Under the pieces are notes generated by a model. It ran no database searches and was not told the origin of the DNA. It saw only the letters and a program-made list of their open reading frames with translations. From positions 12,276-76,275 of the IMG/VR virus record IMGVR_UViG_3300025127_000022: a DNA stretch of 64,000 bases; one strand, 5' to 3'. Shown here one piece after another: positions 12,200 to 41,320 of this stretch; position 1 is the stretch's first letter, and each line of letters begins with the position of its first letter. The translations under genes were made by a program, and so were the position numbers. The DNA comes from a virus.

Positions 12200-12576
12200 T
12201 GAAAAATTTAATTTTAACTATAATTTTATTGGTCTGTGGCGTATCTTATGGACAATACCACGGTGTTGACTGGAATACCCAGGATAATTGCCAACATCAA
12301 ACAATAATATATTACGATAACGGACATATAAAAGAAGTAGGTTGTCATAATAATGATTTAAAAAAAACAGGACAATGGCATATGTACGCACCGAACGGTG
12401 AAAGAATTGCACTTGCAGGATTTGACCATCATGGTAAAAAACACGGTGAGTGGATGATATGGGATGACCAAGGTAAACTTAAAGCTCATATGATTTACGA
12501 ACACGGAAAAAGAACTGGTGTGTGGAAAGCCTATTTAAGTGATGGTACTGTCCAAAAAAGAAAATATAAAGATTAA
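12199..12576 (+). CDS. exported MORN2-repeat (YwqK-like) protein
   Basis: Signal peptide; repeated YYDNG, KKTGQW, KKHGEW and KRTGVW units. Confidence 0.75.
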   Translation: MKNLILTIILLVCGVSYGQYHGVDWNTQDNCQHQTIIYYDNGHIKEVGCHNNDLKKTGQWHMYAPNGERIALAGFDHHGKKHGEWMIWDDQGKLKAHMIYEHGKRTGVWKAYLSDGTVQKRKYKD

Positions 12577-32170: not shown

Positions 32171-34528
32171 ATGGAAAAACCTAAAATGTCATTGACCGAA
32201 GAACTAAGAAAAATAGACCATTTAAATGGCTATGATAAAGAATTTACCTTAGAAGAGTCAAAAAAATACAGTGAAGAAACTAAAAATCGTACTTACGATT
32301 TAAACATATTAACAGAAGAAGAAGCTAAAATCAAATATAAAGATTTTTTAAATGAGGGAAAAAAACCTGAACTACTTCTAGAATTTTTACCTGCTATTGC
32401 TAGTGGTATCGTTAGACTTTTACCTTTTGCTGGAAGAGCTCTTGCAAGTGTAGGTAGGTTCGGAGCTAGAGGGGGTAAACTATTTAAAAAGTTTCCTAAA
32501 ATGGGAAAAGCTTTAGGTTTTGGTAAAATTTCAACAAAAGGATTAAACCTTGGTAAGGCAACTCCATTAGCTGCTAGAGGTTTTACAGGTGCGGGTGGTA
32601 AAATGGGTGGTAAAGTAGTACCAGGTTTACTTAATGCACAAGCTACTAGAGGATTAGGTTCTTTACTTACATGGGGAACTGGAGCGTGGTTGGTTAACTC
32701 TTTTGCAAGTGGTAGTAGTACCCCTTTACCAGGAGACGCGGTAGCGGGTCAAGAAGATTGGGCAAATGGTGAACAACCATCAAAAGAAGATTGGATGTCT
32801 ATGTGTTTTGCACCCGAGTACTATGAAAGTTTAGTACAAATGGATAATGATGATAGTAATGTAACCGTAACTTTTCAGTCAGAAGCAGATATTGTACAAA
32901 TCGCAACAGCTATTAATGACGCTACTGAAGGTGGTGAAAAATATTTTGGTAAAGGTATTGTTGATTTTTTAACTTTTGATGTAGCCGCGGGAGCAGGTAC
33001 TGACGAAGACACTATTTTTAGAGCCTTCCAACAAATTAATACTGTTGGGGACTGTTCACATCTAGCTAAAATGTATCAACTTAAATTTGATGTTCCTTTA
33101 ATAGAGGAATTATATGATGAATTAGATGAAGCTGACTTAAATCAAATTTACAATATTCTAAAAGGAAAACCATTAGCAATTATTAATGGTAAAAGAATAT
33201 TCACTAATGATGATTTAGATGAGTTATTAGAAAAAGAAGCTAAAGAGGTAATTGAAAGACCTGAAGGTTTACCAGCTTATAGATTAAAATTTAATAGTTT
33301 ATTTGGAGGAGCACTGGTAGATGTATTTGTAGGTGTGGATGACGCGGGAACTTCAGCATTAGCAGCTGTATTTAAATCTGGTAGTAAAGATTATTTGGGA
33401 CAATTCCAATATGTAGAAAACTCTGAAGAAAAATACTTTTTCCAAACACCAACAGGTGAAGTAGGTGCAGTTACTGATGAAGACGACAAAGCAAAACTTG
33501 CAAAAATATTCGGTAAAGCAGATGATGAATCAGACGCGGAAAAAGATATATTAATTTTAACTAAAGATATTGAAGTTGATGGTACAATATATGATGTAGA
33601 CGAAAATTTGGCAGACATCGAAGGACCAGAAGGTACTGCTGATGAATATATAGATGAGTTAGTTAGAGATAACCCTACTACAGCTAAAAGAAAACCTACC
33701 GCACTCCAAGGAGCTGCTATCGCATTAGCGATGGGTGTTAAAGATTTTGAGGTTTTAACAGAATCAATCACAGGATTAGCTGAAGTTTTAGGTGAAAGTA
33801 AATTAGTCGTAGAACAAAAATACACCGTTAACTTTGATAAAGATGATGACAAATACTCAATTCGAAGAGTAAGAAGAACAAGTGGAAATACTGAAGAAAA
33901 ACCAGAAACTACAAAAGATGATAGTAGTAGTAGTTCATCTTATGGTGTAGCACCAACGTTAACTGCAGTTGCAGCTGGTAATGGGATAATCAAGAAAGGT
34001 ATGAGAGGAGATTCAGTAGCAGCAATACAAAGAATGTTAAATATGAGTCCTATAACTGGTATATTTAATTCAGCTACAGAAAAAGAAGTGAGAGATTACC
34101 AATCTTCAAATAGACTTAAAGTAGATGGTATAGTTGGTCCAGAAACTGCTGGTTTAATGGTTAAAGGAATGGATTTTAAAGGAAATGAAAAACCTACACC
34201 AGAAAGAGAAGTCGCTTCTTCGGAAACCAAATCTACTGAAGAAGAAATAAAAAATACTTCTGGAAGATTTAGTAGTAAAGATGCCGCTGAACAAAGTTTA
34301 AAGAATCTAGAAAAGATAAACGATACCAAAGCTACAAAAAGTGAATGTGTAATGGTTATAGCTGCAGCATCTAAAGCACTACCAACAATAGGAGGACCTA
34401 ACACTTATAAAGTATTACAATACTGTTACGCAGCGTACAACTTTGGTTTAGGAAAAGAAACTAGACGTGTTAAAAGAGCGTATGGAATTAAAGGTGACGG
34501 TGATTTAAGAAATAAAAGAAGAAGATAA
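32171..34528 (+). CDS. putative internal virion protein: class-B leader, amphipathic peptide, annexin-like repeat, PG_binding_1 domain
   Basis: GAGTDEDTI...Y...F...LIEELYDEL; KKGMRGDSVAAIQRML...LKVDGIVGPET; paralog of 18106..19746. Confidence 0.7.
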   Translation: MEKPKMSLTEELRKIDHLNGYDKEFTLEESKKYSEETKNRTYDLNILTEEEAKIKYKDFLNEGKKPELLLEFLPAIASGIVRLLPFAGRALASVGRFGARGGKLFKKFPKMGKALGFGKISTKGLNLGKATPLAARGFTGAGGKMGGKVVPGLLNAQATRGLGSLLTWGTGAWLVNSFASGSSTPLPGDAVAGQEDWANGEQPSKEDWMSMCFAPEYYESLVQMDNDDSNVTVTFQSEADIVQIATAINDATEGGEKYFGKGIVDFLTFDVAAGAGTDEDTIFRAFQQINTVGDCSHLAKMYQLKFDVPLIEELYDELDEADLNQIYNILKGKPLAIINGKRIFTNDDLDELLEKEAKEVIERPEGLPAYRLKFNSLFGGALVDVFVGVDDAGTSALAAVFKSGSKDYLGQFQYVENSEEKYFFQTPTGEVGAVTDEDDKAKLAKIFGKADDESDAEKDILILTKDIEVDGTIYDVDENLADIEGPEGTADEYIDELVRDNPTTAKRKPTALQGAAIALAMGVKDFEVLTESITGLAEVLGESKLVVEQKYTVNFDKDDDKYSIRRVRRTSGNTEEKPETTKDDSSSSSSYGVAPTLTAVAAGNGIIKKGMRGDSVAAIQRMLNMSPITGIFNSATEKEVRDYQSSNRLKVDGIVGPETAGLMVKGMDFKGNEKPTPEREVASSETKSTEEEIKNTSGRFSSKDAAEQSLKNLEKINDTKATKSECVMVIAAASKALPTIGGPNTYKVLQYCYAAYNFGLGKETRRVKRAYGIKGDGDLRNKRRR

Positions 34529-35443: not shown

Positions 35444-35852
35444 TGGTGGAGATGGGGGGATTCGAACCCCCGTCTTGTCCACTGTCTATTGTACCTATCC
35501 TACACGCTTAGTTTATTCTTTTATTCTCGGACTTACCCTTCTAGAATAAACAACCATCCAGAAGCCCCAACCATAATGTTGTTTAACCACCTTAATGGTA
35601 TTGGTGCGGTCGATTTGTAGGATGACACCTCATATACTATAGAAACAAATCTTAAATTCTATAGAAGAGATGGAGCTTTAGTCGTAATTTAATTACGCTA
35701 CAGCTACAGTTGACTCCTCACGGATAAGACCGAGAGTTGCCATGGTATCTAATACGTCGCCGATTAGAAGTATAAACCAGTTTTACAAGGTTAGTTTAGC
35801 CTCGACGTGCTGATATCAATCAAACTAATGTCAATCAATTCCAGTCATCCCC
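35444..35852 (-). ncRNA. ssrA: tmRNA
   Basis: 5' GGGGAUG pairs with 3' CAUCUCC-ACCA including G3:U70; T-arm GGGGG-UUCGAAU-CCCCC; internal tag ORF 35761-35693. Confidence 0.92.
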
Positions 35853-35908
35853 ATAATTCAAAGAACTTATATAAATACACCCGATAAATTAAAAAATTTA
35901 TCTTAGGG

Positions 35909-35985
35909 TAGACGGAATGGGACTTGAACCCACATGTAACCAGTTACCCTTTCTACAAGGTATAAGCTTGAGGGGATACCCGTCT
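35909..35985 (-). tRNA. non-canonical tRNA-like RNA, putative tRNA-Ile(UAU)
   Basis: 7-bp acceptor stem, canonical T-arm, CUUAUAC anticodon-type loop, no D-arm in the normal position. Confidence 0.6.
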
Positions 35986-35993
35986 ATATCTAG

Positions 35994-36067
35994 TACACCC
36001 GATAGGATTCGAACCTATGACCTACTGCTTAGAAGGCAGTTGCTCTATCCAGCTGAGCTACGGGTGC
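35994..36067 (-). tRNA. tRNA-Arg(UCU)
   Basis: Full cloverleaf GCACCCG...ACTGC-CTTCTAA-GCAGT...TTCGAAT; CCA not encoded. Confidence 0.95.
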
Positions 36068-36075
36068 ATGTTGGG

Positions 36076-36161
36076 TACTCGGGGCGGGAATCGAACCCGC
36101 ACGGACCTCACGGTCCAACAGATTTTAAGTCTGTCGTGTCTACCTATTCCACCACCCGAGC
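36076..36161 (-). tRNA. tRNA-Leu(UAA)
   Basis: Cloverleaf with long variable arm, ACAGA-CTTAAAA-TCTGT; CCA not encoded. Confidence 0.95.
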
Positions 36162-38850: not shown

Positions 38851-39294
38851 ATGGCAATCAGAGCAATATATGGTATAGAATGGTGTACCAAAGTAGAAAA
38901 GGTTTTTAGTCGACGAGCAAAAAATGGAGCTCATCATGTAAGAAGTTTTATGGGTAATCAATTAGAGACTTGTAGTGAAGGTGGTAGTTGTAACGCCATC
39001 TTATTAAAATCCAGTAAAGCTAATTGTGTTGCAAAGGATGGTCCTTGTAATATTGGCCTTCCCTGTAAAACTTTTTATAGTAATAAATCCAACCCATGTC
39101 TACTAACCACAGGTGACTACATATACGAAACCAGTGAATGTGTGTGTACAGAAACTACATCAGCTTTTCCATTATACTTTTCCAATGGAACTGGTGAAGG
39201 TTGTACGACCTGTGAGGAAGGACAAATAAAGTGTTTTACTAGAGACGCAGAAACTTGTCAAATTAAAGCCACAGACTGTGGTTCTAAAAAGTAG
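38851..39294 (+). CDS. Cys-rich protein downstream of the fibre
   Basis: About 14 Cys in 147 aa. Confidence 0.65.
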   Translation: MAIRAIYGIEWCTKVEKVFSRRAKNGAHHVRSFMGNQLETCSEGGSCNAILLKSSKANCVAKDGPCNIGLPCKTFYSNKSNPCLLTTGDYIYETSECVCTETTSAFPLYFSNGTGEGCTTCEEGQIKCFTRDAETCQIKATDCGSKK

Positions 39295-41320
39295 ATACCA
39301 CAACTTTATTATCTTTATCTACACTTAAAGAATAATGTACATCTTCTAGAATGTCACCTTTTAATATATTTTCAGAAATAAAATCTTCTATCTTATTTTG
39401 AATTGCTCTTTTGATTGGTCTAGCACCGAACTTTTCATCATACCCCTCTTCAACAATATACTTTGTAATTGAATTATCAAAAGATACGTTATAATTCTTT
39501 TCAACTAACCTATCCTGTAGTGATTTTAATTCTAATTTAACAATTTTAGATATTACTCTTTTTTGTAATGGTTTAAATACGACAGTTTGGTCTATTCTAT
39601 TTAAGAACTCTGGTCTAAATGTGTTTTTTAAAGCTTTTTTAATAATAGCTTCCTTTTTTTCTTCCATTCTAGACTCGGTATCTTTGGTAGAAAAACCTAA
39701 GGGTTTATTAAATTCTGAAACTTGTTTAGCTCCCACGTTCGAGGTCATAATAAGTAGAGTATTTTTAAAATTAATTTTTCTACCTAAACCATCAGTTATG
39801 TGTCCATCATCAAATATTTGGAGTAACAAGTCATATATGTCCGAGTGAGCTTTTTCTATTTCATCTAAAAGAATTACAGAATAAGGTTTTTTTCTAACTG
39901 CTTCCGTTAGCTGCCCACCTTCATTATAACCAACATAACCTGGAGGAGAACCTATTAGTCTGGTAGAATTAAATTTTTCTTTATATTCTGACATATCTAA
40001 TCTAATTAAAGCATCTTCACTACCGAATATCTCTTTTGCGATTGCTTTAGCTAGATGAGTTTTACCTACACCAGTAGAACCTAAAAACATAAAAGAACCG
40101 ATAGGTTTTTTAACTTCACGTATACCCACCCTATTTCTACGAATTGCTTTTGCTATTTTTTTAATAGCTTCATCCTGGCCTATTACTAGTTTTTGTAAAG
40201 ACTTTTCTAAATTTAGTAAACTTTTTGTTTCATTACTATCTAGTTTAGTTAAAGGAATTTTAGTTATTTGAGATACTACTTTATATATGTCCTCTTCAGT
40301 GATGTCTATCCTACTTTCTTCCATTTGGATTTCCCATTCTAATTTTTTATCCTCAAGTAAACCTATAACTTTTCTTTCTTCATCTCTAAGTTCAGCAGCT
40401 TTTTCATATTTTTGTGACTTAACGACATCCACTTTTTCCAACTTTAAATTAGATAATTTATTTCTAAGGTCTTCTATTTCTTGTGGAAAAGCTACGTCTA
40501 CTTGTACTTTAGCTCCCACTTCATCCATAATATCTATAGCTTTATCGGGGAACTCTCTATTGGTAATATATCGTTCTGCTAACATGACACAGGTTGATAA
40601 AGAATCTTCTGTAAACCTAACTTTGTGATGGTCCTCATATCTTTCCTTAAGATTTTTAAGAATTTGTAATGTTTCTTCCATAGTGGTTGGCTCAACCATT
40701 ACTTTTTGAAATCTTCTTTCTAACGCTCCATCCTTTTCGATGTTTTCTCTATATTCATCTATAGTTGTAGCACCAATACACTGAACTTCTCCTCTAGCTA
40801 AAGCTGGTTTAAAAATATTAGCAGCATCTAGAGAACCTGAAGCATTACCAGTCCCTACTACAGTGTGAATTTCGTCTATAAAAATTATAATGTCTTCATT
40901 TTCTTTTAACTCATCAATTATAGCTTTCATTCTTTCCTCGAACTGACCTCGATACTTTGTTCCCGCAACAATAGAAGTTAAATCTAGACCTATAATTTTT
41001 TTATCTAAAAGATTACGAGGGCATCTACCTTCACTAATTTTAATAGCTAGTCCTTCTACTAGAGCAGTTTTACCACATCCTGGTTCCCCAATTAAAACTG
41101 GATTATTCTTTTTTCTTCTAGAAAGTATTTGAGCTATCCTATTTATTTCCGCTTCTCTACCAACAACTGGGTCTAATTTACCTTCTTCGGCGTATTGTAT
41201 TAAATCTCTAGAAAAGTTATCGAGAACTGGAGTCCTACTTTTAATACTACTTTTTTCTTTTCTTGGTTTACTTTTAGAATCGTCCGACTCAAAATCTGCG
41301 TAATTTCCTTCTAATCTCAT
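39284..41320 (-). CDS. clpC: ClpC-type AAA+ unfoldase lacking the N-terminal Clp-repeat domain
   Basis: [24 protein letters not shown]-type M-domain [29 protein letters not shown] loop. Confidence 0.92.

Follow-up and report, generated by a model that had tools for sequence, protein, structure and literature searches.

Can a transcript that forms no D hairpin, and in which a D-loop-like sequence follows the anticodon arm, still serve as a tRNA? The question is raised by a 77-nt element at positions 35909-35985 on the minus strand of a 64,000-nt stretch of viral DNA (hereafter the window; positions 12,276 to 76,275 of the IMG/VR virus record IMGVR_UViG_3300025127_000022). The window has a G+C content of ~32%, and the record spans 76 kb at a CheckV completeness of 23%, so that the phage is a large one. 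To our knowledge, the segment order of the cloverleaf has been taken to hold for all tRNAs except a few reduced mitochondrial ones. From sequence comparisons, we conclude that the 77-nt gene very probably encodes a chargeable, AUA-decoding tRNA-Ile(UAU) with a non-circularly permuted core. Every standard tRNA part is kept, with half of the D-arm placed after the anticodon arm, and this layout is common to hundreds of phage Ile and Arg tRNA genes, which gene finders mostly miss.

A complete set of tRNA parts in a changed order

An initial annotation of the locus had described a canonical acceptor stem and T arm, a 7-nt UAU anticodon loop with C32, U33 and A37, and the lack of a D-arm after position 9, and the sequence reads as it was described. 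The acceptor stem (AGACGGG/UCCGUCU) has 7 bp, six of them Watson-Crick pairs and one a G-U pair. The anticodon stem is CAAG/CUUG, the anticodon UAU lies at 35964-35962, and C32, U33, A35, U36 and A37 are all present in the loop. While this 7-nt loop is canonical, the stem consists of four Watson-Crick pairs and a conserved U·U at 27:43, compared to the 5-bp standard of the cloverleaf. The parts are listed below in the order of the transcript, with canonical numbers in brackets.

35909-35985 (-), rewired tRNA-Ile element, 77 nt, with a 7-bp acceptor stem, a T arm and a UAU loop, and without a D hairpin
35979..35985 (-), acceptor stem 5' strand, positions 1-7, pairing with 35910-35916
35977..35978 (-), U8 A9, invariant in the family alignments A1 and A2 described below
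35973..35976 (-), U10 and C11-C13, replacing the canonical D-stem 3' strand (22-25) and continuing straight into the anticodon stem
35955..35972 (-), C14 (26) and the anticodon arm, with a U15·U31 mismatch, the 4-bp stem 16-19/27-30 and the loop CUUAUAC
35950..35954 (-), A32 G33 (44, 45), followed by A34-A36, the linker returning to the D-stem 5' strand
35946..35949 (-), G37 G38 G39 U40, the canonical D-stem 5' strand (G10-13), pairing with 11-13
35937..35945 (-), AACUGGUUA, the D-loop equivalent (A14 R15 Y16 Y17 G18 G19 U20 N A21)
35934..35936 (-), CAU (46-48), with U52 as Y48, which shows Levitt-type covariation with position 42
35917..35933 (-), T arm GUGGG, UUCAAGU, CCCAU, with a canonical T54-Psi55-C56-R57-A58 loop
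35909..35916 (-), acceptor 3' strand (35910-35916) and discriminator A73 (35909)

Mapped from family to canonical numbering, C14 corresponds to 26, U15·U31 to 27:43, A32 to 44, G33 to 45, G37 to G10, A41 to A14, R42 to R15, G45 G46 to G18 G19, position 47 to 20, A49 to A21 and Y52 to Y48, with A34-36 as the linker. Strand 10-13 leads into the anticodon stem on its 5' side and thus stands in for canonical 22-25, and its partner, strand 37-40, stands in for canonical 10-13. Between positions 9 and 26 of the window copy, we found no D hairpin (10-13/22-25); its strands enclose the anticodon arm instead. The universal core bases (U8, G10, A14, R15, G18 G19, A21, Y48) are all present with their order changed, and the canonical segment 10-21 is moved to between 45 and 46. 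Features of the Ile branch of the family that the window copy carries are the UAU anticodon, U47 (U20) and A77 (A73).

Covariation in the rewired helices

We aligned relatives in two sets: A1, the Ile alignment, comprises 106 distinct sequences of 76-78 nt from two IMG/VR pattern scans, among the matches listed, and A2, the Arg alignment, comprises 59 members with Arg anticodons together with the window copy. The window copy fits all columns of both, with a 3-bp helix, then U-A-R-N-N-G-G, and Y48 directly before the T stem. In A1, 98.0% of the cells are paired as compared to 65.9% in shuffles, and the covariation score of 0.825 compares to 0.20 in shuffles, while sliding the register never gave more than 0.142. 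Both stems that the initial annotation had called canonical covary, with compensatory changes at 7/7 pairs of the acceptor stem (97.8% of its cells paired) and 4/5 pairs of the T stem, and the anticodon stem covaries at 4/4 pairs.

The helix that extends the anticodon arm, which had been drawn as CCCU/AGGG, does exist, but that register is off by one, as it would place C-U at 12:39 in 31 of the 106 relatives. The true register is CCC (11-13) with GGG (37-39), at which 11:39, 12:38 and 13:37 are 100% paired; in A1, 11:39 alone reads CG in 71 sequences, AU in 31 and UA in 4, and is thus paired in every sequence. A2, with 99.2% of its cells paired, repeats this pattern, as each of the three pairs in the new helix covaries and is free of mismatches (11:39, CG 28, AU 24, GC 6, UA 2; 12:38, CG 49, UA 9, GC 2; 13:37, CG 56, UA 2, AU 1, GC 1). 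Without guidance, RNAalifold returns the identical structure, including the new helix. Hence, the check on homologs that had been put forward for this locus comes out in favor of the permuted tRNA, with hundreds of homologs and compensatory changes in every helix, and we regard the comparative case for the structure, built as it is on aligned sequences, as strong.

The initial annotation had also proposed that a D-loop-like element with GG was moved in the 3' direction, and the moved loop indeed keeps the D-loop signature. The tertiary pair R15:Y48 (42 with 52 in A1) covaries, with AU in 71 sequences, GC in 25 and a mutual information of 0.62, while A41, G45 and G46 are invariant at places that the search pattern left free; U8 A9 were likewise left free in 32 sequences of one scan. 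GAAA is kept in A1 and A2, in part imposed by the search patterns. The covariation of R15:Y48 and an identity base after GG (see below) support the notion that the moved loop would behave as a D-loop.

Could the element instead be a flexible tRNA that lacks a D-arm and carries a class II-like hairpin in its variable region, similar to mitochondrial tRNA-Ser(AGY)? The Rfam tRNA model (RF00005) aligns all 77 nt end to end, at 25.8 bits against a gathering score of 29, by deleting the D-arm (15 model positions) and inserting 18 nt in the variable region, and GUAA-CUGG-UUAC can be drawn as a hairpin in the window copy. This hairpin is, however, lost in about a third of the relatives, with 39:51 reading GC in 71, UC in 30 and AC in 4 of them and 41:49 paired in only 53 of 106, while position 39 covaries with 11 instead. 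As the loop in addition retains the full D-loop signature, with R15 covarying with Y48, we consider such a D-armless tRNA very unlikely.

A proposed path for the chain through the canonical core

We suggest that the chain, after U8 A9, would make no D hairpin and would enter the 3-bp helix as the strand that usually forms 22-25 of the D-stem, from where it would run directly into the anticodon arm and return via A44-G45 and the AAA linker. It would next supply the strand equivalent to G10-13, a normal D-loop, a 3-nt stretch ending in Y48, and the T arm. Such a path would create three new junctions, 9 to 22, 45 to 10 and 21 to 46, and the permutation would be non-circular. In the core of solved tRNA structures, residue 9 touches the 12:23 pair and residue 45 the 10:25 pair, and residues 21 and 46 are found in neighboring layers. 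Because the junctions would join such neighbors, the molecule could still adopt the L-shape and make the known tertiary pairs (U8-A14, R15-Y48, and G18/G19 with the T loop). We thus expect an L-shaped fold, and the transcript would likely be processed by RNase P and at its CCA end, charged by the host isoleucyl-tRNA synthetase (IleRS), and used as an elongator to decode AUA.

Ile and Arg members of one family

Relatives were found widely among phages. A blastn search against GenBank phages returned 78 Streptomyces phage records with 77-81% identity over about 90% of the element; these copies are nearly all unannotated, and the one in phage EGole is annotated as tRNA-Leu. Searching with other members added phage Coruscant, Rhodococcus phage Peregrin, the crAss-like cr130_1, bajarodcaudo virus 1 and a 462-kb uncultured phage. 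Of the pattern scans of IMG/VR, one yielded 44 stretches, a second more than 116 and the one for Arg more than 120. Overall, the distinct relatives numbered well over 200 and came from phage contigs, from cultured phages of Streptomyces and Rhodococcus, and from crAss-like phages. A scan of prokaryotes (one genome per species, 185,579 species) gave 26 copies, all on contigs of metagenome-assembled genomes, and none in the genome of an isolate.

The initial annotation had linked the layout to isoleucine or to a bypass of TilS, but the layout is specific to neither, as it also occurs with GAU, CAU and all five Arg anticodons. The Ile branch in A1 carries UAU in 72 sequences, GAU in 32 and CAU in 2. 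A scan that admitted all anticodons except those with A in the middle returned at least 93 well-paired distinct genes, all of them Arg among the matches listed (ACG 43, UCU 34, UCG 8, CCU 7, CCG 1), whereas a scan for NAV anticodons (Leu, Phe, Val) gave 7 matches, all of them non-tRNA, with 3-4 of 7 acceptor pairs. Rewired tRNA-Arg genes with the five Arg anticodons across the set include L036:634-709, L070:7912-7987, L198, L035:2637-2716 and L203-L313 (locus labels of this study), and in an Arg subtype of 76 nt the anticodon stem has 5 bp and the linker is shortened to AGAA. Some phage contigs carry a rewired tRNA-Arg and a rewired tRNA-Ile together. Because a divergent rewired GAU gene exists (L163:7210-7286), with other linker sequences, a 5-bp anticodon stem and 38 bits on our family model (R1, see below), the family is wider than our search patterns reach.

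The two branches differ at the positions that synthetases would read. The base after GG, which the search patterns left free, is U in 104/106 Ile (NAU) members and A in 59/59 Arg members, and the discriminator is A in 106/106 Ile members and G or A in 54/59 Arg members. In bacteria, A20 is the main determinant for arginyl-tRNA synthetase, and U20/D20 and A73 are part of the Ile identity set (PMC9976931); the combinations U20/A73 in the Ile branch and A20/G-or-A73 in the Arg branch agree with these sets. Of the two features that had been taken as signs of Ile identity in the window copy, A73 thus holds throughout the Ile branch, whereas C4:G69 is found in only 48 of 106 members and is no family trait. 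The Ile NAU and Arg members probably share one origin and have probably spread among unrelated phages; since UCU and UAU are one base apart, a single origin followed by an identity switch would be the simplest history.

Gene finders miss or mislabel the rewired genes

In the window, the element is part of a small RNA gene array, which in minus-strand order consists of tRNA-Leu(UAA), tRNA-Arg(UCU), the 77-nt element, an AT-rich hairpin and a transfer-messenger RNA (tmRNA) gene:

36076..36161 (-), canonical class II tRNA-Leu(UAA), with 60.5 Rfam bits and an ARAGORN call
35994..36067 (-), canonical tRNA-Arg(UCU), 8 nt upstream of the rewired tRNA-Ile, with 73.4 Rfam bits and an ARAGORN call
about 35883-35902 (-), AT-rich hairpin between the rewired tRNA-Ile and the tmRNA
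35444-35852 (-), phage-encoded tmRNA, with 120 Rfam bits over the full model
35994-36004 (3' end of tRNA-Arg) and 35876-35886 (-), 11-nt direct repeat TATCGGGTGTA, bracketing the rewired tRNA and the AT-rich hairpin

The Rfam gathering score, which the window copy falls short of, was passed by 5 of 17 relatives, at 30.8-35.3 bits, and tRNAs in the same loci score 39-74 bits, nearly all above 43. We built a model of the rewired-core family of Ile and Arg tRNAs (R1), on which the window copy, itself part of the training set, scores 93.3 bits and the adjacent canonical tRNAs at most 23.6 bits.

The earlier expectation that finders would miss the gene holds elsewhere, as ARAGORN missed 154/157 copies in other loci; the window copy, by contrast, receives a spurious call that overlaps tRNA-Arg. 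This call is a 94-nt tRNA-Ile(UAU) at 35907-36000, with a normal D-arm whose loop would hold GGG, a long variable arm, and an acceptor strand borrowed from the 3' strand of tRNA-Arg. Its acceptor stem, however, would contain one mismatch besides three G-U pairs, a G-to-A change in the nearest relatives disrupts its D-stem GAUA/UAUC, and the covariation in the family sets the 5' end at 35985. Because ARAGORN makes no call in these nearest relatives, its 94-nt model is an accident of the window copy, and we give it practically no credence compared to the 77-nt gene.

Possible gain, loss and decay at the tRNA locus

The identical 77-mer occurs in the three nearest IMG/VR contigs, in which the flanks and tRNA-Leu differ, the latter with compensatory changes. 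The second copy of TATCGGGTGTA lies 22 nt downstream of the element, and among 126 loci this 11-nt repeat is the longest flanking one, compared to about 6-7 nt in shuffles. In the related locus L009, the whole bracketed piece is absent and tRNA-Arg runs directly into the promoter region of the tmRNA. The repeat looks like the footprint of an insertion, consistent with the element having been gained through recombination at the 3' end of tRNA-Arg. That flanking direct repeats would mark insertion throughout the family was rejected, since across the 126 loci they are confined to this clade. In relatives with a neighboring protein that is 90% identical (L008:1700-3000 and L007:1-300), the tRNA region is remodeled and the rewired tRNA is absent; there, the 5' stub of tRNA-Leu is followed by a second tRNA-Leu(UAA) that is complete and different, and then by the 3' stub of a tRNA, an open reading frame (ORF) that has been inserted, and tRNA-Tyr(GUA).

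Frequent rearrangement of this kind could in principle have left the element behind as a decayed pseudo-tRNA, and its Rfam score below the gathering value, the tRNA stubs in relatives and the flanking 11-nt repeat would all fit such an origin. Against it, compensatory changes preserve every helix in more than 200 distinct homologs from unrelated phages, and copies that have truly decayed look different: L167:912-987 and L029:5159-5231 have broken stems, have lost GG and score 39-43 bits on R1, as opposed to 93 for the window copy. The simple decay of a canonical tRNA, which had been named as the outcome that would overturn the proposal, is not borne out by the family alignments, and we judge it extremely improbable.

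The surroundings of the array hold further genes. The tmRNA of the window escapes ARAGORN despite its 120 Rfam bits; in the relatives L010 and L011, the tmRNA tag as read by ARAGORN is AKLQAVGLLRTEEVAVA. In a more distant relative (L012:1249-1834, minus strand), a group I intron match (RF00028, 71 bits) adjoins the tmRNA match at its 3' end, with a slight overlap, and this tmRNA gene may be intron-bearing. Near the tmRNA of the window lies a phage ClpB/ClpC-type double AAA+ ATPase (39284-41320, minus strand; AAA_2 216 bits, ClpB_D2-small), and the product of 32171-34528 on the plus strand is 785 aa long and contains a peptidoglycan-binding domain (PF01471, 44.5 bits).

Marks of a probable working tRNA and possible roles

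Several features of the family resemble those of working tRNA genes. CCA follows the discriminator in 57/93 Arg genes and 9/106 Ile genes, compared to a chance expectation of about 1/64. Other tRNAs are present in 145/152 loci (mean 6.4), with a median gap to the nearest tRNA of 102 nt and a gap of at most 8 nt for a quarter of the elements. A rewired UAU gene occurs with a canonical UAU tRNA in 2/113 loci and with a canonical GAU tRNA in 20/113, and the rarity of the former combination is as expected if the rewired UAU copy is the AUA decoder. As the initial annotation had pointed out, the three tRNAs in tandem would serve A-ending codons that are frequent here: in the window, AUA accounts for 43% of the Ile codons, UUA for 62% of the Leu codons and AGA for 77% of the Arg codons, matching the adjacent tRNA-Ile(UAU), tRNA-Leu(UAA) and tRNA-Arg(UCU). 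Taken together, helix covariation, R15:Y48, the identity base, encoded CCA and the tRNA arrays support the earlier proposal that the element would be a functional, topologically permuted tRNA-Ile(UAU).

The element could alternatively be a tRNA mimic that acts outside translation, as a decoy for a host anticodon nuclease, a toxin that modifies tRNAs or a synthetase, or as a regulatory tRNA-like RNA. Some phages have a canonical tRNA for the same codon family alongside the rewired one (EGole; 6/42 GAU loci), the RNA repair genes of EGole (RNA ligase, polynucleotide kinase, RlaP-like) hint at a conflict over tRNAs, and an enzyme that depends on a normal D-arm could be blocked by the unusual core. 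A mimic of this kind is nevertheless unlikely in our view, as the features for charging and decoding are conserved (A73, a position 20 that tracks the anticodon, C32, U33, A37, encoded CCA), the rewired and the canonical UAU tRNA so rarely share a locus, and no specific partner protein runs through the family; nothing specific favors a decoy.

In EGole, gene 107 (L015:960-1481; also in L189), located just upstream of the rewired tRNA, matches PF10127 (RlaP, an RNA-repair nucleotidyltransferase) at 26 bits, and the phage also encodes a Ro-like protein, RNA ligase, polynucleotide kinase, a tmRNA and about 45 tRNAs. Among 153 loci, no protein was found that always accompanies the rewired tRNA, and only ORFs for small HNH- or HTH-domain proteins recur, near the rewired tRNA in 59/153 loci, as a heterogeneous cluster in which the gene abuts the tRNA in one clade. 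Examples of neighboring ORFs are L046:10850-11203 (no Pfam match), L063:8566-8967 (above the HNH cut-off) and L106:4160-4705 (just below it). These small neighbors may be homing endonucleases, and their genes may explain the spread across unrelated phages.

Several observations weigh against our reading of the window copy as a working tRNA-Ile(UAU). Many columns that seem invariant were set by the search patterns. The single-sequence fold is no better than shuffles (z = -1.08) and the minimum free energy fold is a different one, so that the case for the structure rests on the comparative data. The anticodon stem consists of only four Watson-Crick pairs plus the conserved U·U and the new helix of only 3 bp, and the three-dimensional argument for the junctions relies on textbook tRNA geometry. 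The window copy carries CCC after the discriminator and thus no encoded CCA. Relatives whose neighboring protein is 83-90% identical lack the rewired gene, which is therefore dispensable. Finally, EGole has a rewired GAU copy together with canonical tRNAs annotated for AUC and AUA and, because it has both kinds of Ile tRNA, plain codon supply is perhaps not the whole story. Our guess is that the layout lets the tRNA escape some host or phage factor whose target is the ordinary D-arm or core. More broadly, it is conceivable, if rather doubtful, that phages have evolved and spread a second natural tRNA architecture, in which the L-shape is retained and the backbone takes a different path through the core. 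It would be kept because the altered D-arm and core make these Ile and Arg tRNAs invisible or resistant to a host defense that targets tRNAs, or to an attack by the phage itself on the tRNAs of its host, and yet leave them acceptable to synthetases, EF-Tu and the ribosome.

Relation to known tRNAs and permuted RNAs

The rewired genes share with canonical tRNA-Ile and tRNA-Arg (RF00005) the acceptor stem, discriminator, T arm, anticodon loop, core and identity bases, the CCA of many members and the tRNA arrays, and differ from them in the rewired D-stem 5' strand and D-loop after the anticodon arm and in the lack of a D hairpin. A tRNA-Ile with a UAU anticodon is itself a rarity that is found in some bacteria, e.g., Mycoplasma mobile. 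A class II tRNA was considered and rejected, as the candidate variable-arm pairing is not kept by covariation.

Mitochondrial tRNAs without a D-arm are similar in that the D hairpin is missing from the stretch between position 9 and the anticodon stem and the helix on the anticodon side is extended. In mammalian mitochondrial tRNA-Ser(AGY) and nematode mitochondrial tRNAs, however, the D-loop and its contacts are lost and the molecules are flexible (PMC7609411, PMC4013460), whereas the phage element keeps the D-loop, G18 G19, A14 and R15:Y48 at a new place in the chain. The circularly permuted tRNA genes of Cyanidioschyzon merolae (Soma, as cited in PMC10085705), from which processing is described to restore ordinary tRNAs, resemble it in that the segment order in the gene differs from the cloverleaf. 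In the phage genes, by contrast, the ends are in the normal place and the permutation is internal and non-circular, such that circularizing and cutting cannot undo it. A circularly permuted tRNA gene was rejected for the window copy, as the acceptor strands lie at both gene ends in normal order. A parallel in kind is a different RNA class, the non-circularly permuted hammerhead ribozymes, which are natural RNAs that keep their three-dimensional core with a non-circularly changed segment order; no other natural non-circular permutation was known at the time of their description (Eckert et al. 2023, PMC10085705). The tRNA-like structures of plant viruses were compared on the same grounds; that of turnip yellow mosaic virus is a mimic in a 3' untranslated region with a pseudoknotted acceptor (PMC11472068), unlike the phage element, which is a free-standing tRNA gene. 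In the full texts that we searched and in reviews of non-canonical tRNAs, we found no description of a tRNA such as the one proposed here, subscription journals lying mostly outside this search.

Implications

The rewired genes form a large natural family with all core nucleotides and tertiary pairs but a different threading of the chain. Since ARAGORN and Rfam-type models miss or mislabel them, tRNA counts of phages and analyses of their codon supply are biased for AUA and Arg codons. The layout could also be a scaffold for the design of orthogonal tRNAs. Because the Streptomyces phages that carry such genes are cultured, the question is directly testable at the bench. If members are confirmed to be active, they would be the first genuine tRNAs with a non-circular permutation, and synthetases, RNase P, EF-Tu and the ribosome would read the shape of a tRNA, not its connectivity.
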